NCBI GenBank assembly: GCA_051294905.1
Contig: CM119372.1
Span: 31,188,001-31,252,000, forward strand
Direction of reading: 5' to 3'
Origin: Botryllus schlosseri
Taxonomy: Eukaryota
Length of the DNA: 64,000 nt
The notes under the pieces are model-generated. The model did not search any database. It had not been told where the DNA came from and saw nothing but the letters and a program-made list of their open reading frames with translations. Positions 10,210-63,840 of the stretch are shown piece by piece (position 1 is the first letter of the stretch; each line of letters starts with the position of its first letter). The translations under genes and the position numbers were made by a program.

Positions 10210-11045
10210 TGATTTGAGCCCAAATACTTTCGGCTGACACTCGTCAGGGGTAATCGTCAGCAACTAGGTGAGAAAGTTCATGTACCATCTAAAAATAGTA
10301 CATTGAACGCTCCCGTATTCGACATTTGATTCTCGCGACGTCATATTTTGCACGGTTGTAACCAATTCACTAGGCCCCGAGTCACAAGTCAATCTCACTT
10401 TTATAGTTTTGACTTGAGTCAAGTCGAGTCATTTTCAATTCATCACCGAGTCAAGTCCGAGTCCAAGTCATCGAGCAGAGCGTCGAGTCCAAGTCATGGT
10501 TTTATGACTCGAGTCCTAGTCCAAGTCATTGTGGTGACTGCTCAGTTTCCAGCTAAAGTCTTGTTAAACACACTTTTTATAACTCTGTTTGGTGATATCG
10601 AACCTACGGCATTTATAATATACTACTTTCCCTTACTTTTAACAGGTTTTGGTCGCATTTTCAAGTACCAGTACCAATAGACGAAATCCCAATGGTGGGG
10701 TTACTTTACTATTTTTCGAAATTATAGTGAAATGTTGGTCTTGGTCGTCTGAGTCTCGAGTCATATGACTCGAGTCCAACTGTCCAAGTCGAGTCAATAC
10801 ACGTATTGACTCGAGAGGAGTCGCGTAATTTCCGTATTTTGAGAAAATGACTCGAGTCAAGTCGAGTCATCAGAAAATCGTGACTCGAGTCTGACTCGAG
10901 TCGAGTCATGACTCGAGTCATTACAACCCTGATATTTTGCGATGACAATGTCGATATACGATGTTCTTTTGAATTCTTCACTAGTTGCTGACGATTACCC
11001 CTAACGAGTGTCAGCCGGAAATATTCGGGTTCATTTCAATATGAA
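10210..11045. repeat. Inverted-repeat element hosting the 10351-10931 MITE
   Basis: CGGCTGACACTCGTCAGGGGTAATCGTCAGCAACTAG (~10231-10267) is inverted at ~10981-11017. Another copy of the left arm lies at ~28513-28622. Confidence 0.65.
10351..10931. mobile_element. hAT MITE with GACTCGAGTC subterminal repeats
   Basis: TIR CACGGTTGTAA / TTACAACCCTG; perfect TSD ATATTTTG (10343-10350, 10932-10939). Same family as 25756-28265, opposite orientation. Confidence 0.9.
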
Positions 11046-12658: not shown

Positions 12659-15600
12659 AGTAGTTAGTATGATCGCTGGTGACCTGGCAGGGGCTCTTAT
12701 GGGCCCGCTGGTGATGTGCCTGGAAACTCGTGTTGGTGATGGTACCCTTTTGACCCCCCCTTCCGCTCGTGATGTGCCATGTGTTCTTATGGGATCTCTG
12801 GTGATGGTACCCTTTCAGGTATAGGCTGCGTCGGTGATGTGTCGTGAAAACTCGTGTTGGTGATGATACCCTTCCAGACACCCTATCGCTCGTGATGTGC
12901 CATGTATTCTTACGGGATCTCTGGTGATGTGCCATTGTTTCTTATGGTATCTCTGGTGACCGCATCCTTTCAGTTATAGGCTGTAGCGATGTTGCGCCCG
13001 CGGATTCTTGTGTGATAATGTACTACCGTTATAGGTATAGGGATCTCTGGTGAAGTGGTGTTGAATATCAAGTATAGTAAACAGTGACGCCATTACTTAG
13101 TATGTATATTCAAAAATATTATATATGACCGATTCGAGGGAATCCCAACGTTTACGGCGAGTACGACAATGATATATCGTTATTCTTATGGACGCGGCGG
13201 TGATTCGTACTTTCGGGTATAGGCTGCGGGCGGAATGTCGTACTTTCAACAAAAAAGGCGTGAAAATAGTTTGCAAAATCTAGGAATTACTCGCATGGTA
13301 ATGTTTGGGTAATTAGATTACCACAGAGCCGGCGTAGACGGCGATTCGAATATCAACAATAGCCGCGTTCACAAACTAACACTTCAAATAGGTGTGAAAT
13401 AGTTTGCAAAACCCCGCGATCGCTGACAAGATAATGTCTCGGACATAACCATCTTTCGCGGCTTCGTGTTACAGACATGTCGATCGCTCACGCGGTGAAA
13501 TTTTAGTAAGCAGTTTGTCACAGAACTTGATTTCACTCGTAAGATTTAATAAGTAACGAATAACAGACCGCCAGTGTCGGTAACTTGAATAGCGACAAAT
13601 TGTCACTTATTTCTACTCTAACCCTAATCCTTTGTGAAGTGTACGCTTATTCAAAAAGGTGCGAAATAATTCTAAAATCCTACGATCGCGCACAAGATAA
13701 CACCTATAAGACATAACCATCTCTCGTGACTTGTGGTTACATACATCGCAATCGCTACAATGTAATATGTTGGTAGTTGGGTGCAGAACTGGATTTCACG
13801 AGTCTGATATAATAAGAATATTACCTATTAAGTAATAAGCACCGAATAACAGAACCGTCGCAGACGGCGACTTGAATATCCAAGATTTGATACTTTTCGC
13901 GATCGCTATATGTTTCACGTTGACTTTGGTTGCGTGATGCGAATCATGAGAATATTCAATCAATGTGTCAATTTGTCAACTTGAAATGAAACTCACTACA
14001 CAAACCAAGTTGATTCGTATTTGAATGTGTTGATCCGGTACAACTCTAATCCTTTGAGAAATCCATTTACCGCGATCAGTTGATTCGAACGTAACTTGAA
14101 TATTGCTGACTCCAACTTCAGCCGCATCGAATTATTCACACATTCCACGCTGCTGTTTCACACCTATAGAATCAATACCAACTAACTAAACAAGAATCAA
14201 GAATCACAAGTATGCACATACAATAATTGTATTTATTACTGAGAAATCAAACGCTTAACAAAAACACGCAACTTAGCATTTGCCAACTCTAGCATTACCA
14301 AAAAAATCCAGGTATTGTTGATTGAAAATCCTTGAGTCCTTATTATCAAAAATGTTATAGTGCGGCGTCGGAATCCATTCGCGGGATGTACTAAAGGTAA
14401 ATTTGGGTAATTCAAAATGAAATATCTCGACTTTGACATAGTCTGAATTGAAATAAATTGACAAACATGACTACCAACTTTCACCCAGTCACATTTCGAA
14501 ATTATACGCATATTGATTTGAAACAAGTCATGAAATATTACAACTATATTCGCGATCGGACTTTTCGTTTGGTAAAGATAGTTTCAGAAATACTATCACT
14601 ATGACATCTCAACATTTTAACATGTTGCCATCAACAAAAGAGTAAAATACAAAAAACCTTGGCAAGTCAATCCGTTTGTAACTCACCCAACCAAAACAAA
14701 ACGTATCCGTATGAAAAGTAGACAAGACTACGCGAGTAATCACTACAATCCAAAATCCATAGCAAGTTCGGTTGCATTCATAGTCCGCCAACTCGTATTT
14801 TTTATTAAACAGTAAAAGTCGTTACTATTCTGCAACCTAAAGTAATTACTACTCGGTGCGCGCAACTTGAGATTAACATATGTTTTGAGTATATGATATT
14901 TGAATGCCTGACTAAGGTAGTTAAGAATTCATTTCTTGCGATCGAACACCGGTGTTACATTGAAAGTTATCATGTTGTAAACATCCTTATTAACACATTG
15001 GTTTGACATACGAGATTTTGTAATAGTCGATCACGACTTGATTATTAAATTATGACGTAATTAGACCGGGGTTGTGTTGAAAGTTATTACGATACCAACA
15101 AACTTTTCAGAAACATTGTTATTAACATATTGATTTGTAAAACTAGACTTACATGTGCGAAATGTTCTTGATTTGAAAGATATTCCATGTTGGTACAAAT
15201 CACTCTGCGTTACGGATATCAGAAAATATTTTTACAAATGTAATTGTTTCCAGTAACCAAGACTAAAGATGAAACAACAATTTCGTTATTAAAACATTGA
15301 ACACCCGACGCAAAATGCTTTATCGGTCGAATTCGTGACGGCTAATTGAAACGACTACGTATAGAGTCAGTATATCACAATTTCATGTCGTTACTATTGA
15401 ATCCAGCAATTGATACAATTTGTTATCGGAGTTGTGACAGGAATTGAAACATATGCACTTTACAGAGTGTTAAAATATCACTTTTGGATATCGAGCGTCG
15501 TTCGAAGCGTGCGACCAATACTCAATTACATCCACACTCTCTGTCGTAGGCGCTAAATGTAAAATCATTACAAGGTAACACTTCCAGGCTTTGATCACCA

Positions 15601-16088
15601 CAGAAGCGATCTGGAATATCTTCACTGGGTGCACCTTATTCTACAACACTTGGGTAATATACAAAACTCATAGCGGTATTAAAATCGAAATATGTCCTAC
15701 ACTGAAATCTACAAAAATCTGTTTGTATTGTCGTTCATAGTAGTGATACCGATTTGAACCGCCTAAAATAATTGTCATCATCTAACCAGACTACTGAAAG
15801 TCGTTGTCATCACAAAAACAATTCGCCTGCCGTTTGTTAAATGTGTCCTATAGCTAGAATTATTTGTAAAACACACACACACGATCAGAGAAATTAGAAA
15901 TCTTCCTATTGTCATTCGTCAAAGTAGATGTAATTACAGTCACTAAAAGACCTCACTTGTATGTGATTGAATCCCTAGCAATTACCCCACTAAACCGGAT
16001 TCCAAAGAAATTTTACTCACTCGACGGATATGAAACAGCGTCGCGTAATCGGTGTAGATCGTTTTTCTAAAGGTAAATCATATATGTC
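12659..16088 (+). repeat. Left TIR arm (3430 bp)
   Basis: Reverse complement of 17000-20223 apart from scattered substitutions and 206 extra bp (14332-14537). Confidence 0.95.
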
Positions 16089-16182
16089 CAGCAGAAAACA
16101 ATTTTCACTCACCCGGAAAGAAACCGAAGTGTGGGTCGACATTCGATATTTTGTTTGCGAGAAATACTTTGTAATAAACACA

Positions 16183-16537
16183 CTGGAGTGGTTGAGCTTT
16201 AACATCGTCAAGCTGTCATTTGTATCGTTTAATTAACCGACATTTAGCGATTGGTGAACATACCGAACGATACACAGTCACTTCGAAATGTTCCGTTGAT
16301 CGTAATTTCCATCATCGTAATAATCGAAGTACATTTGTTTCAAATCGCTGGAGTGGTTGAGCTTCACATCATCAGACTGCCATCTGTACATCAAGAATAC
16401 ATCCGACTTGTAACTGTATCGTTTACCTAACCGAGTTGTATGCACAGTTTGATATTTAGCGATTGCTGAACATAGCACTTCGAAAGACTGCGTTGATCTC
16501 AATTCCTTTATCGTGATAATCGAAGTACATTTGTTTC
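16183..16537. repeat. Two degenerate tandem units (~165 and ~190 bp) in the central spacer
   Basis: CTGGAGTGGTTGAGCTT at 16183 and 16348; TAATCGAAGTACATTTGTTTC at 16321 and 16517; TTAGCGATTG(G/C)TGAACATA twice. Confidence 0.85.
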
Positions 16538-16999
16538 GATTTCATAAAAACCAACTTTTCTATGACATGATAAATTTTTGAAAAGTTATGCTTAGAAGAT
16601 TGGTTCATCTCGCGAAAAAATAATATACCACTCATATTGATACTGTTACTCCATTGACCGATATTTTCAAACGAGTCGATTTTCAACCGAGCAAAATTTT
16701 TACTTGAGTTGTCCCGCTTACTATATTTAAATGTAAACTCACCCGTCTATCAAAACCACAACAAACAATGATAAAAAGTACACAAGCAAACACAACAAGT
16801 TTTACTTTTGTTGGACACTAATTATTATTCCAAGCATCTCATTTCATACTAAGTGTATATGAAAGATATTCACGACACACGAAAATATTCGATATTCCAT
16901 GCTACGAACATACGCAATGATTGGTGACGCTTTCACACTATTTCGATTTAGTGTAACAAAAACAACAACCTGAGAATCCAAACAATCTTGCAAAATCAA

Positions 17000-19900
17000 G
17001 ACATATATGATTTACCTTTAGAAAAACGATCTACACCGATTACGCGACGCTGTTTCATGTCCGTCGAGTGAGTAAAATTTCTTTGGAATCCGGTTTAGTG
17101 GGGTAATTGCTAGGGATTCAATCACATACAAGTGAGGTCTTTTAGTGACTGTAATTACATCTACTTTGACGAATGACAATAGGAAGATTTCTAATTTCTC
17201 TGATCGTGTGTGTGTGTTTTACAAATAATTCTAGCTATAGGACACATTTAACAAACGGCAGGCGAATTGTTTTTGTGATGACAACGACTTTCAGTAGTCT
17301 GGTTAGATGATGACAATTATTTTAGGCGGTTCAAATCGGTATCACTACTATGAACGACAATACAAACAGATTTTTGTAGATTTCAGTGTAGGACATATTT
17401 CGATTTCAATACCGCTATGAGTTTTGTATATTACCCAAGTGTTGTAGAATAAGGTGCACCCATTGAAGATATTCCAGATCGCTTCTGTGGTGATCAAAGC
17501 CTGGAAGTGTTACCTTGTAATGATTTTACATTTAGCGCCTACGACAGAGAGTGTGGATGTAATTGAGTATTGGTCGCACGCTTCGAACGACGCTCGATAT
17601 CCAAAAGTGATATTTTAACACTCTGTAAAGTGCATATGTTTCAATTCCTGTCACAACTCCGATAACAAATTGTATCAATTGCTGGATTCAATAGTAACGA
17701 CATGAAATTGTGATATACTGACTCTATACGTAGTCGTTTCAATTAGCCGTCACGAATTCGACCAATAAAGCATTTTGCGTCGGGTGTTCAATGTTTTAAT
17801 AACGAAATTGTTGTTTCATCTTTAGTCTTGGTTACTGGAAACAATTACATTTGTAAAAATATTTTCTGATATCCGTAACGCAGAGTGATTTGTACCAACA
17901 TGGACTATCTTTCAAATCAAGAACATTTCGCACATGTAAGTCTAGTTTTACAAATCAATATGTTAATAACAATGTTTCTGAAAAGTTTGTTGGTATCGTA
18001 ATAACTTTCAACACAACCCCGGTCTAATTACGTCATAATTTAATAATCAAGTCGTGATCGACTATTACAAAATCTCGTATGTCAAACCAATGTGTTAATA
18101 AGGATGTTTACAACATGATAACTTTCAATGTAACACCGGTGTTCGATCGCAAGAAATGAATTCTTAACTACCTTAGTCAGGCATTCAAATATCATATACT
18201 CAAAACATATGTTAATCTCAAGTTGCGCGCACCGAGTAGTAATTACTTTAGGTTGCAGAATAGTAACGACTTTTACTGTTTAATAAAAAATACGAGTTGG
18301 CGGACTATGAATGCAACCGAACTTGCTATGGATTTTGGATTGTAGTGATTACTCGCGTAGTCTTGTCTACTTTTCATACGGATACTTTTTGTTTTGGTTG
18401 GGTGAGTTACAAACGGATTGACTTGCCAAGGTTTTTTGTATTTTACTCTTTTGTTGATGGCAACATGTTAAAATGTTGAGATGTCATAGTGATAGTATTT
18501 CTGAAACTATCTTTACCAAACGGAAAGTCCGATCGCGAATATAGTTGTAAGGATTTTCAATCAACAATACCTGGATTTTTTTGGTAATGCTAGAGTTGGC
18601 AAATGCTAAGTTGCGTGTTTTTGTTAAGCGTTTGATTTCTCAGTAATAAATACAATTATTGTATGTGCATACTTGTGATTCTTGATTCTTGTTTAGTTAG
18701 TTGGTATTGATTCTATAGGTGTGAAACAGCAGCGTGGAATGTGTGAATAATTCGATGCGGCTGAAGTTGGAGTCAGCAATATTCAAGTTACGTTCTAATC
18801 AACTGATCGCGGTAAATGGATTTCTCAATGGATTAGAGTTGTACCGGATCAACACATTCAAATACGAATCAACTTGGTTTGTGTAGTGAGTTTCATTTCA
18901 AGTTGACAAATTGACACATTGATTGAATATTCTCATGATTCGCATCACGCAACCAAAGTCAACGTGAAACATATAGCGATCGCGAAAAGTATCAAATCTT
19001 GGATATTCAAGTCGCCGTCTGCGACGGTTCTGTTATTCGGTGCTTATTACTTAATAGGTAATATTCTTATTATATCAGACTCGTGAAATCCAGTTCTGCA
19101 CCAAACTACCAACATATTACATTGTAGCGATAGCGATGTATGTAACCACAAGTCACGAGAGATGGTTATGTCTTATAGGTGTTATCTTGTGCGCGATCGT
19201 AGGATTTTAGAATTATTTCGCACCTTTTTGAATAAGCGTACACTTCACAAAGGATTAGGGTTAGAGTAGAAATAAGTGACAATTTGTCGCTATTCAAGTT
19301 ACCGACACTGGCGGTCTGTTATTCGTTACTTATTAAATCATACGAGTGAAATCAAGTTCTGTGACAAACTGCTTACTAAAATTTCACCGCGTGAGCGATC
19401 GACATGTCTGTAACACGAAGCCGCGAAAGATGGTTATGTCCGAGACATTATCTTGTCAGCGATCGCGGGGTTTTGCAAACTATTTCACACCTATTTGAAG
19501 TGTTAGTTTGTGAACGCGGCTATTGTTGATATTCGAATCGCCGTCTACGCCGGCCCTGTGGTAATCTAATTACCCAAACATTACCATGCGAGTAATTCCT
19601 AGATTTTGCAAACTATTTTCACGCCTTTTTTGTTGAAAGTACGACATTCCGCCCGCGGCCTATACCCGAAAGTACGAATCACCGCCGCGTCCATAAGAAT
19701 AACGATATATCATTGTCGTACTCGCCGTAAACGTTGGGATTCCCTCGAATCGGTCATATATAATATTTTTGAATATACATACTAAGTAATGGCGTCACTG
19801 TTTACTATACTTGACATTCAACACCACTTCACCAGAGATCCCTATACCTATAACGGTAGTACATTATCACACAAGAATCCGCGGGCGCAACATCGCTACA

Positions 19901-20223
19901 GCCTATAACTGAAAGGGTGCGGTCACCAGAGATACCATAAGAAACAATGGCACATCACCAGAGATGCCGTAAGAATACATGGCACATCACGAGCGATAGG
20001 GTGTCTGGAAGGGTATCATCACCAACACGAGTTTTCACGACACATCACCGACGCAGCCTATACCTGAAAGGGTACCATCACCAGAGATCCCATAAGAACA
20101 CATGGCACATCACGAGCGGAAGGGGGGGTCAAAAGGGTACCATCACCAACACGAGTTTCCAGGCACATCACCAGCGGGCCCATAAGAGCCCCTGCCAGGT
20201 CACGAGCGATCATACTAACTACT
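17000..20223 (-). repeat. Right TIR arm (3224 bp)
   Basis: Inverted copy of 12659-16088. The ORF track shows mirror-image ORFs (14609-14791 minus = 18297-18479 plus; 12657-12935 minus ~ 19947-20339 plus). Confidence 0.95.
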
Positions 20224-48143: not shown

Positions 48144-48995
48144 CTGAAAAACATATACAATACCGCATTAGTTACATATATGTGTATCAAACTATATAAA
48201 TCTTGCGAAGCAAAGCTGTAGGTTGTATGGTTGGTGACACTTATAATCGGGACCAATGCCAGCACATGACATCGGATAACTCCGGACACTATCAATACAT
48301 AAATACTTGATTAGTCAAATGATACAAAAACCAGGGTATTAAGATATCGCACGTCGAATTTATTCCGCTTCGCACTATTCGAGTTTCATTTGGAGGTAGC
48401 CAGTAACGAATTACTTCCACGTTTTCCAGATAATTCAGTAGTTTCACTACGGAGGCTGTACTTAAGGCGTCATCATCATTGGTTTATTAGCAATATTATC
48501 GGTTCAATACACCACAAAAATGCGATACAAAGAAAAGATAGGAAGTTGTCGAAGCGACATGGAGTAGTCTATTGAATCAGATACCCACCTTGGCCTAGGC
48601 AATGTAAAGAGGAGGCATGCACACTCAATGAAAAGTAAAGAAGATAGTATAAAAAGGGCAAGTAGCAAGAAATGGGGTGGCATGTCATGGAAGGCGAGAT
48701 CGATAGGTTAGTCGTGGTCCGGTAATGTTGAGGATGGACTAATTAATATTCACTGAGTTGAGTTTTATGAGTGAAATTATCAAAATACCCGCGTCAAAAT
48801 CTCCTATATCCCGGCAACGAATATGTACTCGAGAATTGAACGTATTTTGGTCATTTTGTGTGTCGCCAACATACACCCTGCCATTCCAAGTATAGATGAG
48901 TAGCCGTCATGTGTCGGGCATTTGTCATAAAAGATGTTCCTATAACCCTCCTATCATTTTCAATCTGCAGGTTATTATAGATGTCAAGATCAGAC

Positions 48996-50396
48996 CTTTA
49001 ACAAGCTCAGAGGATGTTTCCATGTATACCGCGCCAGTAGCGAATCGTCGAACCACTGACCATCGTTCCGCATGAAGACCTTCTTTATTAAAGTCCCGGA
49101 ATCTGCTAATCTCCATCTCAGCTACAAATCTCGCTGCCAGATATTCTTGAATGCTTTGGTGGCAGAAAAAGAATACGAAATCCCCTTGCATCAAACTGCG
49201 GCTGAGCAGATTTTCACCCGGAACCTTTGCCATTAAATCTTTAACGTCATCGGCGGACAGTTCAAAATGTTGTAAATCAGATATCTTGAAGACAACTCTT
49301 CCTTCTTGCATGCCTCGAAAAGACATCTCTTTCAGTTTGTTCACTACCGACGAGATGTCTTCTGATTTTCGTATGTTTTCTACGCCTTCAAGAGCTGCGA
49401 TGATCCTATCGTACAGTTCTGTGATTGTAGCCGGAGGAGGCCTACGTGGATCTTTTCCCATTACAATCGCGGTTAAAATTAGGAAGACCGGTTGGGATAT
49501 TATATGGAGCAATCGTGGCGACATCCTTTCAATTCGTTTCCAAAGGCAGACTCCGTTTTCTCCAAGAAGGGAAGTGAATAGTCCCTGTGCGTCTGGTAGA
49601 GTGAAACCATGCAGCATAATAATATCATGGGGTCTGGCTTTCTGCGGTAGCTCAGAGATCCTGAATTCCCTTGAAGTTATGAAAATTTTAACGTGCCGAA
49701 GGATATTCCGTGCTAAAATATTGTATAGGATTGTCCAGGTGCTTTCTATGTCATGATTTTTGATGGTTCGAATGTCTCTATGGTAAATATTGAACCTTGC
49801 TTGATCGAGCCCGTCAAAAAATATAACCGCATCGGATTGATTTTCAACTAACCATTTAAATGCCTGATTTTCTTCGCAATCAGTTTCGTAAAGACCACCG
49901 AAAAGAAATTTTGATGGCTTGATAAGGTTCTCGTCTTTAACATCCTTCAATTCAACATAAAGTATCATCTTCTTTTCGTTGAACAGTTTATGTATGTTTT
50001 CCCCAGAGGATAAACCCAGAGATTTTTTTACTAGTCTACGTGTAAGTGTCGTTTTACCTGATCCCGCTGACGCGACTATGGCTGTAATACCGACCGTTCC
50101 AGACGGCTGTAATTTTTCTCTCTGCCATATGGACGCCATTACCTCGTCAATTTGGATCGGTTTGTTTTCATTCTCATCCTGGTAGTTGAATCCGACTTCA
50201 TTTACCAGTTGATTTTGTACAGCTACATCTCTTTCATAGCGACCTTTGTAGTAGTGGGCAACATCAACCTTTCGCATTTGCGGGTGAACTACAAAGTCTG
50301 TCTCTTGCAGCCCGTCGAGCTTGAATTCATCAAGAATACTGACCGAAGAGCGTTCGTCAGCACTATCGTTGACACTCTTTATAAGTCTGTCGACGT
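48996..50396 (-). CDS. NACHT-domain NTPase (NLR-like innate immune receptor), large internal exon
   Basis: Walker A ASAGSGKT, Walker B VIFFDGLDQ, sensor FITSRE, winged-helix FCHQSIQEYLAA. The frame is open upstream of the annotated ATG to acceptor TTTTGTTGCAG| (50397); donor AAAG|GTCTGA at 48995. Confidence 0.92.
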
Positions 50397-50896: not shown

Positions 50897-51750
50897 ATGT
50901 CTGGAGAGAAGTATATTAAAGTTCCAACGTTGGACGTGTTACCAGACTCTGCAGATAGTGTGAAGATATTCTCTCATTGGGAGCGGATGTTGAAGAGTTT
51001 AATCGAAGCTATATCTGCTCTTTCAACTGATGTAAACAAGCTCGCTATATTTTCAGGTTATTTATCACCTGAAGTCTCCTCATTTATTGAAGAAATTGAT
51101 GATTACGATGCTGCTATCACCGAGCTGCAGTCCCTTTACAAAAAAAAGAAAAACGAAGTCTACGCCCGACATCTGCTAGCAACTGCAACGCAAGAGGTTG
51201 GAGTTAACGTGTCAGAATTTTCTAGAAAACTGATGGCGTTGTCTAAAGATTGTAACTTCTTGGCCGTAAATGCTCAAAAGCATAAAGAGGAAGCTGTAAG
51301 AGACGCTTTCATCACTGGGCTGAGGTCCCCGGCAATTTGACAGAGATTACTGGAATGCGATGAACTAACTATGCAAAAAGCCTTCCAGACTGCGGACACG
51401 TTAGAAAGAGCCTAATTGTTCGCCAGCTCGTACAATGTCAACCCTCCTTCGTCTGATACCATCGCTTCTGCGGAAATCGCAGCAGTTCGGCAAAGCGATC
51501 CTGAACACGGGACAGATTTTACCGCGGCTGTAGAAAAGCCTGGAGCACCGAGATTACTGCGCAAATGCTTCTTCTGCGGCGGATCTCATGTGGCAGACAA
51601 GCCCGTTTGTCCTGCAAAGGACGTCGAATGCCTGAAATGCGGAAAAAAGGGGCATTTTGCAAAGGTATGTCGATCCCCTCGTTCATATGACATCCGAGCA
51701 ACCGCCAGCATGCTTCTAGCAGGAGTTCCAAATTGTCTCTGGCGTGAGTC
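50897..51750 (+). pseudogene. gag: Gypsy/Ty3 LTR retrotransposon gag, with two in-frame stops, cut by the Polinton insertion
   Basis: NEVYARHLLAT...RDAFITGLRSPAI*QRLLE gag motifs; zinc knuckles CFFCGGSH...CPAKD and CLKCGKKGHFAKVC. Stops at 51338-51340 and 51413-51415. A possible LTR at ~50651-50843 has no clear PBS. Confidence 0.85.
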
Positions 51751-52075
51751 AGTAGTATATACGATCGGTCGCGAACTAACGTTTTTTGCATGGGGTAGTA
51801 TAGGCGGGGTGGTGACGCGCCTGAAAACCGGGGGTGGTGATGCGCCTTTTTAGACCCCCCTCTCGGCGGTGATGCGCCATGTGTTCTTATGGATGCGGTC
51901 GTGATGCGCCATTGTGGCTTATGGATGCGGCGGTGATTCGCCGTGAAAACTCGTGGTCGTGACTCGTCTTTTTTGCTATAGGCTGCGGCGGTGATGCGCC
52001 ATGTATTCTTACGGGATCTGTGGTGACTCGCTATGTGCTCTTATGGGTGCGGTCGTGATTCGCACTTTCAACCAT
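51751..52075 (+). repeat. Polinton left terminus: subterminal array of ~22-32 bp GTGA(T/C)-core repeats (part of the TIR)
   Basis: About ten copies of (G/C)GTGA(T/C)(G/T)CG... e.g. GTGATGCGCCATGTGTTCTTATGGATGCGGTC. Full TIR length cannot be set without the right end. Confidence 0.85.
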
Positions 52076-52548
52076 CTCTCGCGTGGTGTTGAATAGTCAC
52101 CAACAATAACCGCACAAACGGAAACGTGGCTTGCAAGAGGATTAAGTAGTGCGTGCGACCTATATTCCGAATGACCTGCGCGCTGAATTATTTCCCGTCC
52201 AGCTGTGTGCTACTATCGATTATTACACTAGACCAGTCAGTGTGAAATAGTTTGATCGTAAATTATGATATATGATGTCGTAGTTTAGTCGTGTCGAATG
52301 ACCGATCGTGTTCTCTTTCCTCGCTATTGATTGCTAGCTGAATAATACTTTCAGATCGGATTATTCACACCTTCGCTGTTTCGCGCCTACAGAATAGTCT
52401 GCTGTTCACAGTCGCAACTTCATCGCGATAGCGCAATTTTCACACCTCGATCAGTAGAACAACACCGCGCTAACCCAGTTGTCGAAACACATAGGTCATA
52501 CATTTTACGTGAAATGAAATATTGTATTGTGGTATACAAATATGCAAA

Positions 52549-53160
52549 CTATTCTTTCAATTCAACAAGTCTAGTTAACGGATCGATTTTCAAGCTGCCG
52601 ACACAGTTTTTAACACGAGTGAGTTGATATTTCTTCCCGGGTACGAGCGAGGCTTTGTTCCATTGATCCAAAACCACCTCGCCAGTATCATCCTTCAATG
52701 TAAAACTGTATAATTTCAACTCCTTTCCGGCACCAGAATTGACCATCTTCTCCTCTCGAGAAACACAAGTAGCGGCGATCGAGACGTATTCATCTTTATT
52801 TCCGTATACCGATTCACAGGTCAATAATGGGTATTCTTCAGTCGTATGTCTCGATTTTCCATGCAGAGTTACTGACGAAGCCCGACCAAGTAATACAGCG
52901 GGTTTTCCAGTAAATTTATCAATTTGAACCCAACCGGATTTGACCATGAGTTTTTTTCGTTTGGTGAATGCTTTCTCAATGTTCCCGAACAAATCACGAT
53001 TGAAACACGTGAAAGATATCTCTTCGTTATTGCCATCGATGAATATACCTTTGAGATATTGGCTAACGCCACCTCTTTTGGGTGATGAGACGAATTTGAC
53101 GCCGACGTGAAAATTTGAAGTTGCTCCGACTTGCATAGTGTTGACGCTGTTCGATGCCAT
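52549..53160 (-). CDS. Tandem OB-fold, RPA/SSB-like ssDNA-binding protein
   Basis: Two OB-like repeats: FIDGNNEEISFTCFN and FTLKDDTGEVVLDQWN...LVPGKKYQLTRVK (LxDxTGxIxLxxW motif). TATAAATA at 53207-53200 favours the ATG at 53160 over 53196. Confidence 0.75.
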   Translation of the reverse strand: MASNSVNTMQVGATSNFHVGVKFVSSPKRGGVSQYLKGIFIDGNNEEISFTCFNRDLFGNIEKAFTKRKKLMVKSGWVQIDKFTGKPAVLLGRASSVTLHGKSRHTTEEYPLLTCESVYGNKDEYVSIAATCVSREEKMVNSGAGKELKLYSFTLKDDTGEVVLDQWNKASLVPGKKYQLTRVKNCVGSLKIDPLTRLVELKE

Positions 53161-53322
53161 ATCGTTTGATAAAGTGGGAGTCATCAACAAACCCATCGAT
53201 ATTTATAGAATTAGGCACGTGGTATTGAGTGAGTTAACAGTCTTTGTATAATCCTGATGACGCGCGTGAATAGACTTGGATTGAAATAAACTTTACAGGA
53301 GTTCTGTAAGAAAGGATGCCGT

Positions 53323-53676
53323 TCACAAGTGACAAACGACACGAATGAATTTTCTTCTTACCCAGTCAATTATCAATGTACTGTAGTGAGTATTCAAGAT
53401 GTCTGTTGCTAAATCTCTGTACACCGCTAGGGTACGTATGTCACTTTTCATCGCCGCAGTGCTTATGACACTAAAAACCCCATTCCAATCGACTCCGTAT
53501 GATCGAATCTAGTTAACCAATGCGGTAAAATCACACTTTCGAACACGGCTCACGTTTTGTCCATGTACATAGAAATCTAGTACTCCGTGGATGAATTTTT
53601 CCGTTTCGCTCAATGTGGGGGTTGTCAAGTTATGATAGTAGAGAAGGTAATTCTCAATAATCGCGCTAGTTGCCAT
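53323..53676 (-). pseudogene. Bcl-2-like protein (117 codons) with one in-frame stop; absent from the ORF track
   Basis: MATSAIIENYLLYYHNL...FTALVN*IRSYGVDWNGVFSVISTAA...LATDILNTHYSTLIIDWVRRKF; BH4-, BH1- and BH2-like segments in the right order. TAG at 53511-53509. Confidence 0.55.
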
Positions 53677-54048
53677 AACGAGTATATGTAACTATCAACT
53701 GAAAAAGTAAACCATGAGAATGACACCACAATGTGTTAAAATGGTGAAATACACCGCTCAGATTTCGAAAAAACAGATGTTGGCGGGTGCGTTTGACATG
53801 TGTGACACAATAAAATCGCCCGTTTCGCTAAACAGGAAATTCACTAAAGCGCAGTGCGCTGTGCGATTTTGAAAAACCAGATATCTGCGGCCGCGTTTTG
53901 ATCTGTGACACACTAAATACGTCCGGTTCTGAAAGTTGGAAACGCGATCGGTTCTGGGGATTACGCAGTGCGTGCGCGACCTATATTTCGAATGATCTGC
54001 GCGCCGAATTATTTTCCATCCAACCGCGTGCTACTATCGAATTAAATC

Positions 54049-54056
54049 TATAAATA
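54049..54056 (+). promoter_or_regulatory. TATA box upstream of the terminal-protein gene
   Basis: TATAAATAGCCA, 82 nt before ATG 54138; an identical 12-mer occurs at 60294. Confidence 0.65.
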
Positions 54057-54137
54057 GCCAACACCACGATCAGATTGTTATACTTCGCTGTCGCAGACAT
54101 AAACATTGGTTGGAGCAGTTAGATTAATTATTGTACA

Positions 54138-54843
54138 ATGGCCGAGGCTCAGATAGATAATCTTGATAAATTTGGTTATGAACCAAATGCATTTGAATCG
54201 CAATTTGAAGAGAATGCGGATATCTTTGATGCGATTAATTCTGGTGATCTGATGACGTCTGATTTAAGAGTTGAAGCCACAGAACGCAACTCTACGACAA
54301 CGATCGAAATGCAACCAAACCACGCAGATATAGCGCGTCAGGTGGGGCTGAAGTCTGTGAGTCGACGCAGACGGAGTCATGTTCGCGAGGAAGAAGACAC
54401 ACCACCAGAGACAGGCGACCAATACCAAGAAGTTGTATCCCAGAACTGGTAAGTGATAAAATCATATGTAGTGAATCAGAGTCGGCGCGTGTATAATATC
54501 CGAGTCATCGATCGTGAGATACCGGATGTTTTCCGCGATATCCAAGCGATATTTTTCTCAGAGTCGACTCGTTTCAAAGTGAATTTTGCGTATGGAATCA
54601 TTTTACATAACATCGCGGCTGGGAGATTTCGGTATTTTCATGCGTCGGCGAACATCGATAGCGTATTAGAAGTCCCAGCAGCGATTACATCACTAGCTGA
54701 ATGATGAATTTGTTGAATCTTTAACGTTGGAAACGGCACTAGATGTGTTACAAGACTCTCGACCAGATACAAAATACAGGGCAGTCTGTCTGGCTAATGT
54801 ACAGTTTTACGTATACCCCACTGACGGTTTGTTGATTGGTTGA
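54138..54843 (+). pseudogene. Terminal-protein-like region (N-terminal module of Polinton pPolB) as a separate gene, with a stop at 54450 and a frameshift at ~54702
   Basis: SQNW*VIKSY...YNIR...FKVNFAYGIILHN...FRYFHASAN..., then in +1 frame DEFVESL...SRPDTKYRAVCLANVQFYVYPTDGLLIG*. These motifs are typical of the segment preceding the vOTU domain in Polinton PolBs. Confidence 0.7.
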
Positions 54844-55499: not shown

Positions 55500-58400
55500 A
55501 TGACTCGACACCTTTGGAATCATGAAGAACACGCACCGCCAGAGATCGATAACCAAAAGCAACAAATTACATCTCAGATCTGGCAAGCGGTGAAATCGTA
55601 TGTAGTAAACAGTAGCCACGTGCGCAATACTAGCGTCAGCAATCGTAAGCGGTCGGATGTTTTCTAAGATACCCAATCGGTCTATCTGATCAACCCCCAG
55701 TTATTTGTATATCCTACCGATGGTTTGTTGATCGGTTGTGTCGGTATTAAACTCCCGATATGGCTTGCGAGAGCGAGATGTATCATGACATTTACACGCC
55801 GAAAGAATAATACTAAATACAAGGACAATCTGTGTGCTTTTCGCTGTATTGGTCACACGCTAGGTAAAGACACCAAAGCAATGGCCCAACAATTCACTTC
55901 GACATATGGTGTAAATGCAGAATCTGGCGTGACACTTGACATGCTGGATAATATTGAGGATTTGTTTAATGTCGCCATCTTCGTGTATACTAAGACTGAG
56001 GGTAAAGCTGTCGCACTCCGTCGTAGTACGTTTGAAGCGAAACCTGTGTACTTACATTTAGAAAATGCACACTTCTGTCTCATTACTGACATGAGGCGAT
56101 ATATGGAGAGCTATCGATGTGATGTTTGTCAAAGATTTTTTTATGAGCAGCACGAATTGACCAGACACAAATGTACAACAGAGCCTGTTGAAGTGTTTCC
56201 CGGTGGCGTATATACACCTCCTCTGGCCATATTTGAAAAGCTTGATCTAGAAGGGATGTTTGTTCCTCACCAGCTTCGTTATTTCAAATACCGTATCGCG
56301 TTTGATATTGAGAGCATGTTCGAGAAGTGTGATATTCCAGATTCCTCCAAAACTTCGTGGGAGTGCAAACATATTCCCATTTCTGTTAGCATATCTTCTA
56401 ATGTGGAAGGGTTCTTGGAACCGTATGTAATTGTCTCGAACGGTGACCCAAACGACTTGTGTGCGGAAATGGTTGATCATTTTCATGATATTCAAAGTGA
56501 GTCATTTAGGTTGTTACAGATGGAATATCAACACTACTTGGACATGCTCGAAACTAAAATTGCCGAAATGAAAGCACTCGATCCTTCCGAGAAAAAAATA
56601 CCACTTGAACGTTTACAGGAGGAGTTTATGCGATATTTAAAACAAATCCCTGTTTTGTCGTTCAATGGTGGTCGGTATGACTTGAACTGTCTCAAAGAGT
56701 ACTTGATGGGTTTACTCGTTGACGAAAATGTGAGTGTATTGAAACGGGGTAACAACTTCCTCTCTTTGACAACCAACAGACTTAAACTTTTGGACATTGT
56801 AAATTACTTGGCACCCGGGTTCTCGTACGATGCTTATTTGAAAGCCTTCAAATGTAGCGCCGCTAAAGGTCATTTTCCGTATGAGTTTCTGACTAGTTTG
56901 GAAAAGCTGGATTATACGAGTCTACCTAGCCACGATGAGTTTTACAGCTCGCTAAAAGGTCGTAATATATCCACAGCTGAATATGAAAACTGTTTGAAGG
57001 TTTGGAATGATAACAAAATGACCACTTTACGTGATTATCTCAAATGGTACAACGCAATCGATACTCATTACTTCATTGAGGGGTTAGAAAAACAATTTCA
57101 ATCTTTCAAAAGTCAATTCAGTGTGGATATATTCAAAGAAGCTGTCTCCCTACCCGGGGTTGTATCGAGGCATCTTTTCAATAGCATTCCGCGTGATTTC
57201 ACCTTGTTCAATGATAAACACCAAGATCTGGTTTCGCTATTCAGAGACAATTTAGTAGGCGGACCGTCGGTCATTTTCCATCGATATCAAAAACAGGGTG
57301 AAACTCGAATCAAAGAAGTTTTTTATAAGGAAAACGCACAGATTACCCAACATGTAACAGGGCTGGACAGCAATTCGTTATACTTTTTTGCTTTGAGTGA
57401 ACCTAGTCCAACCGGTTTCCCGGTACATTGGCAACCACTCGATGCTGAGTGTACTAAATTCAAACCGGTGAAGACCGCACCGAAATGGGGGGAGACAGCA
57501 GCTCAATGGCTAAACTGGTATTCGTATACCCACAATGTACATGTCCACCATGCTTTTAATGGACCTGAAATCCGCGTAGGAGCTCGTAATTACCCTGCTG
57601 ATGGGTTCTATCGTAATTCAGCTGGTCAAGGGGTAATCTTGTCTTTTCTTGGATGTCATTTCCATGCACATCAGTGCAGATTTGGCTGTGATGATTTGGA
57701 ACGTCGAGAACGGACTAAACGTGTTCATGATTATTACAAAAGCCTCAATTACCAAGTCATATGTAAATGGGAATGCGACTGGCGCACGGAGAAACAGGAA
57801 AATCCTGATATTGTGCGATATCTTAATGGTATTCAACCACAATTGACTCGAGCCAAGTCTGTCACCGCACAAAAATTGATGGAGATGGTAATGACTGGTA
57901 CATTCTTCGGATGTTTATCAGTTGATATTTTTACGCCAAAACATTTACAAAGGAAGTTTGTTGAACTATGTCCTATATTCAAAAATACGATGGTGTCTCG
58001 CGAGCATTTGACAGGTCACATGAAACAGTTCGCTATTGATCGTAAATTACTCCCCAAACCCACGCGCATGTTGGTTGCTTCATACTGGGGCAAGAAAATC
58101 TTGTTGACCTCCGACTTGATCAAGTGGTATGTAGAGCATGGGTTGATTATATCCAAAATTCATGAGGCGGTCGAATTCACAAAAAAGACCTGTTTTGACA
58201 GCTTTGCGAAAAATGTCTCAGACTGTCGACGTGCTGGGGACCGCGACCCCAGCCTAGAGATCATTGCCCTAACGCAAAAATTAGCTGGAAATAGCAGTTA
58301 TGGCCGCGTCTTGATGAACCCACGTAAATTCAAACGAACGTCCTACTGTGATAAAAGCGAATTGGGCACCAATGCGAAGGATCGTTTTTTCGTGAAATGT

Positions 58401-59092
58401 GACGAATTGAACGCTGATCTATTTGAAATAACGAAGCGACCTAAAACGATCAAGTGGGGTAACTGTATTCAAGTGGGATTTTGGGTGTATAACAATGCTA
58501 AGCTCAAGATGTTGTCGTTTTTTTATGACTGCTTGTGTAAATATTTCCGTGACGAGTGCTTCATGCTATTAATGATGGCCACAGACTCCCTCTATCTTTT
58601 GCATTCAGCCTCATTCGACGATATTCTTATCCCTGAGAAAAGAGATGAATTTTATCTTGAATACGAGAACTGGTTTCCACGCTATTTTTGTGATGAGCAC
58701 CGAACTGAGTTTTTGGCTGACCCGGTTTCTTTTGATCGCTCGAGGCAGTGTTGCAAAGATGCGTATGCGTATTACCTTCGTCAACCGGGTTTGATGAAAG
58801 TGGAGTATGAAGGTGGTACATCTTTCTGCGGTCTCCAATCCAAAAATTACTTTTGCGATGGACCAAAGAAAAAATTAGCTTCCAAAGGGCTCCAGAAATC
58901 CAATCAAATTGACTTCGAAAATTTTCTGGGTGTCTTGACATCTAAGGAAGCTACGGGGGGAGTGAACAAGGGGTTTCGGTGCAGAGATGGGGTGTCTATA
59001 CGTACAAACAACAGCGTAAAACATTGTCCTATTTCTACGCCAAACGTCGAGTGCTCGAGGATGGTGTGTCAACCCTACCATTAAATGTGTAA
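55500..59092 (+). pseudogene. polB: Protein-primed family B DNA polymerase (vOTU-like protease, Zn finger, exonuclease, polymerase with VSR-like nuclease insertion); near-intact but with lesions
   Basis: DNLCAF...ENAHF (vOTU Cys/His); ExoI FDIES, ExoII FNGGRYD, ExoIII YNAID; motif A DSNSLY, motif B KLAGNSSYG, motif C MATDS. In-frame TAA at 55665. A frameshift in the G-run at 58989-58992 hides the canonical end YTYKQQRKTLSYFYAKRRVLEDGVSTLPLNV* (stop 59090-59092). Confidence 0.93.
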
Positions 59093-59689: not shown

Positions 59690-60298
59690 ATGGAATTGAT
59701 CCACCCATTCGCGTGTATTGTGAGTGGTCCTTCAAGAAGTGGGAAGACTACTTTTGTTGCAAAGCTGATTAGGCATGCCGCATCCATGATTAAACCAAGT
59801 GTATCCAGGGTCGTATATTGTTACAATAATTATCAGGAGGTTTTCAAGACGATGCATAATGTAGAATTCCACGCTGGTCTAGATATTTTAGAAGAGTTGA
59901 AGGTTTGCTCTGAAGACACCTTGATTATAGTGGATGATTTCATGACTGAGACAGCGAAAATTGCAGACTACTTTACAAGATTTTCTCATCATTCAGCCAA
60001 GACAATTTGTTACGTCACACAGAACCTGTACCACAAGGGTAAAGGGGCACGTGACTTGAGTCTTTCAAGCTCGTATATGGTGATTTTCAAGAATCCGCGC
60101 GACCAACAGCAGATCAGTTTTCTTGGTCGACAAATGTATCCAAACTCTAGATTTTTAACAGAGGCTTATCGTGACGCTGCTAGGCAACCTCATAGTTATT
60201 TATTCCTCGATCTCACGCAAGAAGCGCCTGAAAATCGACGAGTTATGACCAATATATTTCCTGGTGAAACCATGGTGGTTTATAGCCCGATGGTATAA
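59690..60298 (+). CDS. A32/FtsK-like DNA packaging ATPase
   Basis: Walker A GPSRSGKT, Walker B LIIVDD, and TQNLY / FKNPRD / YLFLDL motifs typical of Polinton ATPases. TATATAAA at 59644-59651. Confidence 0.95.
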   Translation: MELIHPFACIVSGPSRSGKTTFVAKLIRHAASMIKPSVSRVVYCYNNYQEVFKTMHNVEFHAGLDILEELKVCSEDTLIIVDDFMTETAKIADYFTRFSHHSAKTICYVTQNLYHKGKGARDLSLSSSYMVIFKNPRDQQQISFLGRQMYPNSRFLTEAYRDAARQPHSYLFLDLTQEAPENRRVMTNIFPGETMVVYSPMV

Positions 60299-60679: not shown

Positions 60680-61080
60680 CTTCTTTCAAAAAAATCTTCA
60701 TAACTCCGAACCCGATCAACGAGGTTGAAGCTCAGAAATTGAATTTGGATATCGATAAATGTATGAGCGACATATTACAGATGAACATACCCCAAGAACG
60801 AAAATTAGCCTTATATAACGACGCACTAAATCGTTATCAAACAAAACACGACACATTGAATCAACCGATGAAAATCGATATATCAGAACAAAGGAATCTA
60901 TTTTCGGCTAGTGAGTTGGACGCACTGCGACGCCTGATCAAGGGTGAACCATCAAGGATTCCTAAACCTCACTCACCATCACCGAGTAGCCAACGAAGCA
61001 AAGTAAAGACCCAACATGCCAAGACGAAAAGTGGTCGTACACCCAAGACCCCGAGACGATACGGATGGGAGCCATACTAA
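60676..61080 (+). CDS. Polinton hypothetical protein (helical N-terminus, basic P/S/K-rich tail)
   Basis: ATGA overlap with the upstream gene; LDxxMxDIL...KLALYNDALNRY segment; overlaps the integrase start. Confidence 0.75.
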   Translation: MTSFKKIFITPNPINEVEAQKLNLDIDKCMSDILQMNIPQERKLALYNDALNRYQTKHDTLNQPMKIDISEQRNLFSASELDALRRLIKGEPSRIPKPHSPSPSSQRSKVKTQHAKTKSGRTPKTPRRYGWEPY

Positions 61081-62086
61081 ATATTTCACGCCAGGGCTAC
61101 CTGGTAGTTTCCGCGGCGCATACGTATTCTCTAGAGGGCGGAATAGAACCAAAGTCAAGGAGTTTCTTTCGAGCAAGGACGCGTACACAAAACATTTTCC
61201 CTATCGAAAGAAATTTAAGAGACCTAGGGTGATTACGTCCGGTCTCGGTGTTCAGTATCAAACCGATCTCATGCATATGCAAAATCTTTCAAAAGAAAAC
61301 GATAATTTTAAATATGTGTTGGTGACGATCGATTGTTTCAGTCGATTTTTATATCTGTATCCACTCAAGAACAAAACCTCGCAAGGTATTATTCGCGGAT
61401 TCAAGGAAATATTTAAGGATCGTATACCTCATGTTATTCAAAGTGATCAAGGTTCTGAGTTTACTAATCGTGCGTTTCAGACTTTCTTAAAAGAGAACAA
61501 TGTGCGACATTTTCATACAAATAGTGAACTGAAAGCATCGATATGCGAGCGTGTTATTCGTACTGTGAAGCAAGTGTTATACCGTTATTTCACGCATAAT
61601 AAGACTTTGAATTATGTCAGTGTCCTGTCTGAGATATGCCGGGGGTATAACACTACTTTTCACGTGGCTATAGGGTGTCCTCCAGCGGATGTTAATTATT
61701 CGAATCAAGAACAAATTTTCCATAGGTTATACGGTGACATGACCCCTAAAAAACCCAAACTAACTATCGGCACACCCGTCAGGATTTCGAAATCACGTGG
61801 TAATTTTGTAAAAAGCGCCTTGGCGAGTTGGACCGAAGAAATCTTTTTCGTATCTCAATGTCGTAAAGGTGACCCTCCTACTTATCAATTGAAAGACTAC
61901 CATGGTGAAGTTATAGACGGTCGCTTTCAGCGTGAAGAGTTACAACCAATAACTAAAAATAATAATATTTACAATATCGAAAAAATCCTGTCTACTCGCA
62001 GGAAAGGAAAGAAAACGCAATATCTTGTAAAATGGTTTGGTTATCCGTCTAAATTTAATTCTTGGGTCTCGGATTTGTATAAATAG
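61016..62086 (+). CDS. int: Retroviral-type (rve) DDE integrase with C-terminal chromodomain
   Basis: YQTDL / IQSDQGSEF / ASICER catalytic triad; YNIEKIL...YLVKWFGYPSKFNSWV chromodomain; uninterrupted. Confidence 0.96.
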   Translation: MPRRKVVVHPRPRDDTDGSHTKYFTPGLPGSFRGAYVFSRGRNRTKVKEFLSSKDAYTKHFPYRKKFKRPRVITSGLGVQYQTDLMHMQNLSKENDNFKYVLVTIDCFSRFLYLYPLKNKTSQGIIRGFKEIFKDRIPHVIQSDQGSEFTNRAFQTFLKENNVRHFHTNSELKASICERVIRTVKQVLYRYFTHNKTLNYVSVLSEICRGYNTTFHVAIGCPPADVNYSNQEQIFHRLYGDMTPKKPKLTIGTPVRISKSRGNFVKSALASWTEEIFFVSQCRKGDPPTYQLKDYHGEVIDGRFQREELQPITKNNNIYNIEKILSTRRKGKKTQYLVKWFGYPSKFNSWVSDLYK

Positions 62087-62095
62087 ACACCGAAA

Positions 62096-63172
62096 ATGTT
62101 GTTCAACCTAATTATGGATTCTGATTCCGTCTCATCTCGCATGTGTCAAGTCTCGAACAGTCTGAAAAACCAGATTGTGTTTATTGTACAGATTTGTATG
62201 TTAGTGTGTGTAATCGTGTTTTCATTATATCAAATTTCTGTCGGGGTGGATCGTGAGATATATTTAACGCTACTGTCTTCTTCACTTGGGTATCTATTAC
62301 CGAATCCATCACCAATCGTATATGTTGAAAGAAACAATAAAATGTTGTTGACTCTACCTTCGAATGCGAGTTTGGATAAATTTCCGAATACTAGCACAGA
62401 TTTTCAAACGGAACTTTACAAAGAATTAGAAATGAATCGCCATGAGCTAGGATTATGTGAGCTAACCTTCCCCAATGATTTTCAACCGCGAATTGAAGTG
62501 ACAGCGAAAAGTATCGGTTTTGAATTTGTCGATGCGAATGGATACACCGATCGGTATTATATTCCCGAAGGCTCGTATTACAGCATCGGTGAAATGTTAG
62601 AATCGTACGAGAAATATTACATGGGGGACATTTTCATTTTACAAGGATTCGGAGACTTTAGAATCACATTCAGAAGATTAGTCACGAGTAAAAAAAGATA
62701 CAAGCGGGGTGTACCCATAAATACCGATACCGCAGACTCTAGCGTCAAACACATACCCCGTACCACGCATGATTCACCCGAACCTTACGGATTGATACCA
62801 CTTGGTTCTGTGTTGGATACAATAACATTTAGACGCGTTGTATCTCGTCGTCGCGGAGTGGTAGAATTTATCTTTACACCCGCGATAAAGTTGGAACGGA
62901 TTGATAAGGTTTATGTGTATTGTGATCTGATACAACCAAGACCACACGGTAACAAGCTGCAACAACTTTTACGGGTGGTTACTGTAACCGCTAAACCGAA
63001 TGAAAACCAAATCAACATATTCTCAAAACCATACTTCTTTGCTTTAGCGAGAAACAATTTTAGAACAATACGAATTTATCTACGTGATGCGGCAGGCAAC
63101 CCTATTAAATTTCGAAAAGCACCAGTGACAGTAACCCTACGCTTCCGTCGTAGAGCTGTTGATTCAATATGA
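62096..63172 (+). CDS. Small transmembrane module fused in frame to minor capsid protein (penton) 1; penton Met at 62342
   Basis: Hydrophobic IVFIVQICMLVCVIVFSLYQI...LLSSSLGYLLPNP, then MLLTLPSNAS...ELGLCELTFP...VYVYCDLI...LLRVV...IRIYLRDAAGNPIKF...VTLRFRR (Polinton penton motifs). Confidence 0.85.
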   Translation: MLFNLIMDSDSVSSRMCQVSNSLKNQIVFIVQICMLVCVIVFSLYQISVGVDREIYLTLLSSSLGYLLPNPSPIVYVERNNKMLLTLPSNASLDKFPNTSTDFQTELYKELEMNRHELGLCELTFPNDFQPRIEVTAKSIGFEFVDANGYTDRYYIPEGSYYSIGEMLESYEKYYMGDIFILQGFGDFRITFRRLVTSKKRYKRGVPINTDTADSSVKHIPRTTHDSPEPYGLIPLGSVLDTITFRRVVSRRRGVVEFIFTPAIKLERIDKVYVYCDLIQPRPHGNKLQQLLRVVTVTAKPNENQINIFSKPYFFALARNNFRTIRIYLRDAAGNPIKFRKAPVTVTLRFRRRAVDSI

Positions 63173-63840
63173 GTTACATCACGTTGTCTGGCACCAAAGG
63201 CGAATTCTCGGTGGTGTTACCGAATGAAATTATTTGTAATGAGCTTGCGTTGGTGGATATGAGTTTTGTCAGTGAATCTCTTGATCGAATTATAATCAAT
63301 CGTGATCAAGCACTCTGGGAGCTACATAATGAGAAAGATCGAATAGTAGAAGCGTACCTAACACCACTTGGGAATTATGCAAACAACCTCGAGTTGACGC
63401 GAAGAATATTATCTGAAAGTTTCAAACACTGTTTCACCGAAAGAATCAACGATGAACTTTTCCGAATTCGTTACTCGAAACGTATCACACTCCACCCCAC
63501 GGATATATTCACGAATTATTTCAGTGTAGTTGATCAAGTGTCGACACCAGTATGTAATGTCACGTCGATCAAACCTAAACCAACTCAACCCCACCACAGA
63601 TATCTTTTTGTGTATATGAATGTACTACGACATCATCCGGTGGGTGATTACATGAGTCAATTGCTTTGTGTGATCCAAGTAAATAAAGAGACGTGTATGA
63701 GACAAGAAGTTGTATATGAAAAACCGTTTTATTTCCCAGTGTCGATTAACCACGTCCGCGATATAAAAATCACCATCCGGGACCAATACGGTCAGTTAGT
63801 ACATGATATAGAGACCACATTGACACTCCACGCACGATGA
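63169..63840 (+). CDS. Minor capsid protein (penton) paralogue 2
   Basis: YITL...ELALVDMSF...YLFVYMNV...VGDYMSQLLCVI...YEKPFYFPV...IKITIRDQYGQLV...TLTLHAR; ATGA overlap. Confidence 0.85.
   Translation: MSYITLSGTKGEFSVVLPNEIICNELALVDMSFVSESLDRIIINRDQALWELHNEKDRIVEAYLTPLGNYANNLELTRRILSESFKHCFTERINDELFRIRYSKRITLHPTDIFTNYFSVVDQVSTPVCNVTSIKPKPTQPHHRYLFVYMNVLRHHPVGDYMSQLLCVIQVNKETCMRQEVVYEKPFYFPVSINHVRDIKITIRDQYGQLVHDIETTLTLHAR

Follow-up and report, generated by a model that had tools for sequence, protein, structure and literature searches.

The stretch of Botryllus schlosseri DNA analysed here (contig CM119372.1 of assembly GCA_051294905.1, positions 31,188,001 to 31,252,000 of the forward strand), 64,000 nucleotides (nt) long and hereafter called the window, contains the left part of a Polinton/Maverick element whose accessory region holds, on the minus strand, a small gene that we read as a compact and degenerate descendant of a host gene of the Bcl-2 family that was taken up as genomic DNA; in intact copies it would form a real two-exon accessory gene of about 135 codons. 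We place the probability of this reading as a whole at about 0.7. Capture as genomic DNA is proposed because the family's intron after the BH2 tryptophan has apparently been kept; this predicted gene structure is stronger evidence for a Bcl-2 origin than sequence likeness, and the motif likeness taken alone lies marginally above chance. The features of the candidate gene, in window coordinates, are as follows.

53362..53676, minus strand: first coding exon of the Bcl-2-like gene, 105 codons, ending at Trp105 (from the frame and the profile alignment)
53362..53676, minus strand: segments of this exon in order, namely BH4-like helix 1, helix 2, a short helix 3/4 region, degenerate BH1 (GVDWNG) with helix 5, helix 6 and degenerate BH2
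53509..53511, minus strand: premature stop at codon 56 (read from the sequence)
53304..53361, minus strand: predicted phase-0 intron of 58 nt that starts right behind Trp105 (GTAAGA ... CCTTTCTTACAG; from splice signals)
53211..53303, minus strand: predicted second coding exon, 30 codons and a stop, with a helix-8-like segment followed by a basic amphipathic tail
53699..53710, minus strand: strong splice acceptor 22 nt 5' of the ATG, either of an intron in the 5' untranslated region or a trans-splice site

The original prediction for this locus described a 117-codon minus-strand frame broken by a single TAG, and direct reading bore this out: the frame at 53323-53676 runs from ATG to TGA with one internal TAG. 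The three segments that it had likened to BH4, BH1 and BH2 (AIIENYLLYY, F..LVN-I.SYGVDWNGVFSVI and LIIDWVRRK) are all present in the frame, and the acceptor-like sequence that it had placed about 22 nt upstream of the ATG is there as well (TTACTTTTTCAG, ending at 53699, 22 nt ahead of the ATG). A comparable acceptor lies at most 45 nt ahead of 33 of the 2482 ATGs in the window, and the 2.2 kb between 52400 and 54600 contain only two strong minus-strand acceptors, this one and that of the predicted intron. Since in-frame stops are present between the pre-ATG acceptor and the ATG, any upstream exon joined at 53699 would be non-coding. The copy in the window is dead, owing to the stop at codon 56. 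As to the extent of the gene, the final 12 codons of the frame (VRRKFIRVVCHL) are, judging by the splice signals, probably intron read-through, and the gene probably extends into the second exon at 53303-53211, beyond the coordinates first proposed.

When the DNA was inspected for splice signals, the register of the frame had already been fixed by alignment, which set Trp105 against the final Trp of BH2. Trp105 is directly followed by a GTAAGA donor, and a GT[AG]AG follows only 4 of the 1612 TGG trinucleotides in the window; at the other three sites the 105 codons upstream hold 5-10 stops, so that only the Trp105 site has a near-open frame before it. The first AG more than 30 nt past the donor belongs to a strong acceptor at 58 nt, opening 30 codons, a combination of acceptor and open exon found at 7 of 169 GT[AG]AG sites. 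An exon boundary at the BH2 Trp is highly conserved in pro-survival Bcl-2 genes; their tail is encoded by the exon that follows, and as a rule the first exon is untranslated (PMC8998228). Among 26 Bcl-2 loci from metagenomes, a GT stands straight after the BH2 Trp in 20, these representing only a handful of distinct genes, and the remaining 6 continue into helix 8 in an mRNA-like manner. At the level of sequence signals the candidate has this conserved phase-0 intron after the BH2 Trp, its splicing being predicted.

The predicted second exon also fits helix 8. On two profiles of the region following the BH2 Trp (16 and 10 cleaned rows), the 10 residues at its start obtain 4.9 and 5.8 bits, scores that were reached by 15 and 7 of 3592 control peptides and that lie inside the leave-one-out range of true members, and read-through of the intron scores about -14 on the same profiles. 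The Bcl-2-like gene of the original prediction is retained to this extent: descent now seems likely, mostly by way of an intron signal and a helix-8-fitting exon that formed no part of that prediction.

The sequence of the frame was compared with three reference sets (two bat herpesvirus vBcl-2 proteins, 120 mostly vertebrate proteins and the 26 metagenome loci), and the likeness found is marginal. Semi-global profile alignment gave z-scores of 2.6 and 2.1 at two gap settings, with the BH4, BH1 and BH2 segments following one another correctly and Trp105 falling on the final Trp of BH2, and the register returned by hhalign placed residues 49-104 on helix 4 through BH2, with LNTHYSTLIID on the helix 6-BH2 stretch. 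Our own profiles overall gave p of about 0.015-0.07. When exon 1 was anchored at Trp105, its score was matched by 15-53 of 1000 shuffles; against the Bcl-2 profile it ranked first of the 83 near-open Trp-ended frames in the window and 22nd-24th among all 1600 Trp-ended frames. A scan for the pattern GINWGRI returned 60 loci and no further Bcl-2. Two AlphaFold models (predicted local distance difference test [pLDDT] 49.7 and 46.2) have six helices in a compatible order, at the places expected for helices 1, 2, 4, 5, 6 and 7. The helical bundle on which the original prediction had staked its case is therefore neither shown nor excluded at a pLDDT of 46-50, and models of this quality speak for no particular fold.

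The individual motifs are eroded to different degrees. A BH4 consists of two hydrophobic residues, two of any kind, an aromatic residue and a hydrophobic one. The candidate has this pattern in IIENYL, which is found both in the window and in P0002, a Logan protein related to the candidate (see below), and which scores +4.5 bits ungapped, a value that is weak alone. The NWGR of BH1 is lacking, GVDWNG keeping the Gly-Val and the Trp without the next Gly and the Arg, and the 25-residue stretch from helix 4 to BH1 still scores +8.7 bits; the most hydrophobic 13-mer begins at the BH1 Trp. BH2 does not follow W-I-x-x-N-G-G-W, as only I, D and the last Trp align and three residues are missing. The BH1 Trp stands at residue 64, compared with 85-106 in full-length references, and helix 3 therefore seems to have been lost. 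The predicted tail is basic and, with a hydrophobic moment of up to 2.2, amphipathic; its maximum 17-residue hydropathy is 0.82 against 1.7-2.3 in transmembrane tails, and it does not qualify as a hydrophobic C-terminal transmembrane anchor, which N1 and A1/Bfl-1 also lack. Since both NWGR and a transmembrane tail are missing, we doubt that the protein binds in the classic anti-apoptotic manner, and the candidate is probably a degenerate descendant that should not be filed as a canonical pro-survival Bcl-2.

Several results weigh against descent from Bcl-2. Searches with the frame, in which the stop codon was read through as X, matched no Pfam family at E-values up to 1 (the level for PF00452 or PF02180 not being reached) and no sequence in the PDB, and BLASTP against a Bcl-2/Bcl-xL chimera gave no match. 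Our own hidden Markov models scored -0.8 bits (112 of 2000 shuffles did as well), 1.3 bits (34 of 2000) and 0.2 bits (134 of 2000), and hhalign gave a probability of 0.5% (E 0.11). The semi-global signal was gone at a third gap setting (z = -0.04), 9-10 of 352 natural decoys equalled the candidate at the other two settings, and divergent true Bcl-2 members reached z-scores of 14-29; the anchored exon 1 score was likewise matched by 14-17 of 249 natural Trp-ended decoys. The BH3-like stretch of helix 2 scores -0.6 bits (its Asp is in register and kept in P0002), the spacing from BH1 Trp to BH2 Trp is 41 residues compared with 46-53 in 19 references, and helix 5, though the most hydrophobic stretch, reaches a hydrophobicity of 1.08 compared with 1.70-2.48 in references. 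Fold searches with both models matched no Bcl-2 fold, the models being too poor for a meaningful search. As regards the second exon, its test rests on choices made after a first look: the first helix-8 profile (40 rows) held 24 rows with mis-annotated or alternative ends, later dropped, and with the 40 uncleaned rows the score was reached by 368 of 3592 controls, while with 7 residues it was reached by 264-393 of 4176. No RNA joint across the predicted intron is among the joints listed (15 of 48), and no intact full-length relative of the candidate was retrieved.

These results leave room for a real Polinton accessory gene that encodes some other small helical protein with no relation to Bcl-2, such as an alpha-solenoid or a CID/VHS-like bundle, its BH-like words and its donor being coincidental. 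Such a gene would require three chance agreements in the same register, namely the donor (4 of 1612), the start of the second exon (7-15 of 3592) and the exon 1 score, and the models are as little in favour of its fold as of any other. We regard this as the leading alternative, and as unlikely.

Sister copies and relatives bear on whether the frame is a gene at all. In run X1, differences within codon 56 leave it without a stop in 39 contigs, which make up 7373 of a depth of 7991; in run X11 this holds for 6 contigs (56.4 of 58.6). The stop is the minority state among sister-copy contigs, in keeping with the open frame in related copies that the original prediction implied. Among the contigs listed, three that are about 87-89% alike span the frame without gaps, and the sole sister-copy difference listed for the second exon falls on a third codon position and is silent. 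Deletions of 1 nt occur inside the frame in some sister contigs, at two places (6% and 16% of X1 depth), as expected for dying copies. At the protein level, a HMMER search of 1.84 billion sequences returned two matches: P0002 (51 aa), with 60% identity over residues 3-47 (E 2.4e-08) and conservative changes, and P0003, a repetitive protein that was rejected as spurious. A word search of 5.8 billion sequences gave 3 candidates, none significant; in IMG/VR, tblastn was passed by 1 of 7 stretches with no locus resulting; JGI metagenomes gave 0 of 142; and a search of the ESM Atlas with P0002 reached at best 0.81, to an unnamed entry and under the level of evidence. About 3 in 100 of the single-cell RNA run X23 was covered; there, 53251-53532 has a depth of about 2.5, oriented like the 3' pile (120) of the neighbouring OB-fold gene, and 53533-53673 has a depth of 1.6 in the opposite orientation. 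This is weak evidence that some copy is expressed; RNA run X21 yielded no reads and carries no weight either way.

Were there no gene here, the frame would be a chance near-open stretch in non-coding accessory DNA, for which its shortness, the 1-nt deletions and the low RNA depth could be cited; however, a protein-level relative with conservative changes, the absence of the stop from most copies, the gap-free divergent contigs and the position of the frame between the region's only two strong acceptors make this hardly credible. The sister copies also bear on a different reading of the TAG, as the acceptor of a second, 45-nt in-frame intron with a GTGAGC donor at 53553, by which the window copy would be intact and the protein shorter. 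Apart from the donor at Trp105, the minus strand has no GT[AG]AG in 52400-54600 but this one, and the span is divisible by three, but the codon differs in more than 90% of the sister-copy depth, which argues against a conserved signal, the similarity to P0002 continues to residue 47, within the would-be intron, and the pyrimidine tract is poor. We consider a second intron very improbable and retain Bcl-2 descent, with a stop that kills this copy, as the best reading.

The element that carries the candidate, and its immediate surroundings, comprise the following features.

51751..52063, plus strand: left end of the Polinton, with subterminal repeats of 32 nt and the terminus AGTAGT, an end motif also described in PMC8097293
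52139..52219, no strand assigned: first copy of an 83-nt direct repeat (85.5%) that brackets the OB-fold and Bcl-2-like genes
52549..53160, minus strand: expressed gene for an RPA-like OB-fold protein of the single-stranded-DNA-binding type (ESM Atlas 0.93-0.95 to OB-fold/RPA clusters)
53958..54040, no strand assigned: second copy of the 83-nt direct repeat, bracketing the same two genes
55785..59084, plus strand: pPolB (Pfam DNA_pol_B_2, E 5.4e-08)
59690..60298, plus strand: P-loop ATPase (Pfam AAA-type, E 3.5e-05)
61016..62086, plus strand: retrovirus-like integrase with chromodomain (Pfam rve, E 2.8e-16; Chromo, E 7.9e-09)
50897..51750, plus strand: insertion target, a decayed gag-like frame with a CCHC knuckle (motif read directly), truncated by the Polinton end

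The combination of pPolB, ATPase and integrase with chromodomain identifies the element as a Polinton/Maverick; its right end lies beyond the window and its terminus is known from the left side only. From gene order, the ATPase can be inferred to be the packaging ATPase. Two open reading frames (ORFs) 3' of the integrase (62096-63172 and 63169-63840, plus strand), which are alike near their C-termini by eye, had no significant Pfam or PDB match and occupy what we take to be the place of the minor capsid genes. The gag-like frame at the insertion site presumably belongs to a long terminal repeat (LTR) retrotransposon. Queries with pPolB, the OB-fold protein and the integrase found no sister elements in IMG/VR. 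The original prediction had taken the candidate to mean a true viral phase needing suppression of host death. This does not follow: LTR retrotransposons of the planarian Burro group also bear BCL2-like and BIR motifs (PMC6431247), the gene lacks the Gly and Arg of the canonical BH1 NWGR, and capsid genes in the window were not confirmed by Pfam or PDB searches.

The left accessory region, from the Polinton end to pPolB, holds two minus-strand genes, that for the OB-fold protein, whose 98% relative P0004 starts at 53160 and whose RNA depth reaches 120 at the 3' end, and the candidate. Contigs of X1 join both copies of the 83-nt repeat (about 1825 nt skipped) or skip 543 nt over the Bcl-2-like gene; the OB-fold and Bcl-2-like genes may thus come and go together as one module, or the joints may be assembly effects of the repeat. 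In X1 the summed contig depth over the OB-fold gene is 75,000-124,000. Over the Bcl-2-like gene it is about 8,000-13,000, and immediately ahead of pPolB about 1,100-1,400. Depth is not copy number, but the difference suggests that the OB-fold gene is present on far more copies. Between 54138 and 55785 (plus strand), a 104-codon ORF and the DNA that follows it look like an N-terminal portion of pPolB that has decayed and been duplicated in part (54390-54548 is similar to 55524-55679), and several short GT-AG intron-like spans of 58-113 nt lie in the same interval. Single-cell RNA at a depth of 6-14 covers the subterminal repeats (51841-52404) in the orientation opposite to the OB-fold gene and suggests a transcript from the end of the element or from its many derivatives. 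Near the insertion site, a 445-aa ORF at 48940-50277 (minus strand) encodes a host-type NACHT NTPase (Pfam E 1.2e-13), probably part of an NLR-like gene. Further away, at 12659-20223, lies a near-perfect 7.5-kb palindrome, with arms 99-100% complementary and a 911-nt spacer, the ends of which resemble the Polinton left end (about 70%) and of which there is a diverged partial copy at about 662-3488; neither a long ORF nor any relative of the Bcl-2-like gene lies within it.

If the candidate does descend from a host Bcl-2 gene, we propose that after its capture the gene was shortened and eroded, and that in intact copies host RNA polymerase II and the spliceosome would yield a small helical protein of about 135 residues with a Bcl-2 fold. 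The basic amphipathic tail, in place of a transmembrane helix, would take this protein to membranes, where it might restrain innate or cell-death signalling for as long as the element is replicating or moving. With the Gly and Arg of BH1 lost and a short helix 3/4 wall, action through a changed groove or another surface, as seen in part with poxvirus N1, would be more likely than that of a classic BH3 sponge, and between BH3 binding and a groove-independent role we lean slightly towards the latter; loss of the BH1 Gly has been tied to a non-functional groove in a placozoan protein (PMC8998228). A bolder and quite tentative form of the proposal is that Botryllus Polintons carry a minimised, profile-invisible Bcl-2-fold protein that came from an intron-containing capture, is still spliced by the host and has exchanged its BH3 groove for another activity such as inhibition of innate signalling. 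If so, it would be an independent parallel, in an endogenous virus, to the N1-type proteins of poxviruses, and the intron would be a relic of where it came from. The main reading, if right, would show that Polinton accessory genes can enter as genomic DNA and retain a spliceosomal intron. Nuclear, host-spliced expression would be implied, ORF-based annotation would undercount the host-control genes of Polintons, and the position of an intron would identify a protein once sequence similarity has faded. The gain would be moderate, as Bcl2 on Polintons has already been published and function in the candidate is a proposal.

Compared with cellular Bcl-2, Bcl-xL, Mcl-1 and A1 (PMC8998228), the candidate shares the order of BH4-, BH1- and BH2-like segments, the phase-0 intron (here predicted) after the BH2 Trp and the tail on the last exon (likewise predicted), and its pre-ATG acceptor is compatible with an untranslated first exon. 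It differs in having DWNG for NWGR and W for GGW, in a BH3 that is unrecognisable, in being about 25-30 residues shorter and in its amphipathic tail. Poxvirus genes are not known to have introns. Vaccinia N1, a tail-less Bcl-2 fold of 117 residues that can work mainly on NF-kB signalling, and other divergent poxvirus Bcl-2-fold proteins resemble the candidate in being small, in having no significant identity to cellular Bcl-2 and in their lack of a transmembrane tail (PMC11209288); the fold and binding of N1 have been solved, whereas those of the candidate are inferred. The candidate frame had no Pfam match to any poxvirus family. A1/Bfl-1, which retains canonical BH1 and BH2 motifs, is a further point of comparison. 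Like the predicted tail of the candidate, its C-terminal helix is amphipathic and not plainly hydrophobic, and this helix can aid mitochondrial localisation (PMC8961529).

Among mobile elements, the intact vertebrate Mavericks (PMC8097293) are similar in their AGTAGT terminus, core genes and an accessory region beside the core, but no introns were seen in their genes, whereas the accessory gene described here apparently has one. A close published counterpart is found in the adintoviruses, for which Bcl2 and IAP homologues have been reported (PMC8502044, Starrett et al. 2021): in both cases a Bcl-2-type accessory gene sits on a Polinton/Maverick with pPolB, ATPase and integrase. The adintovirus Bcl2 genes were found by database search, whereas the Botryllus candidate is invisible to Pfam and phmmer, and introns in them are not mentioned in the sections of text and the supplementary map labels of that paper available to us. 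Our searches of the literature outside subscription papers turned up no account of a Polinton Bcl-2 gene that bears an intron. Bcl2 genes on Polintons are already published as a category, and what appears to be new in Botryllus is the compact, motif-poor form of Bcl-2 together with a retained host intron.
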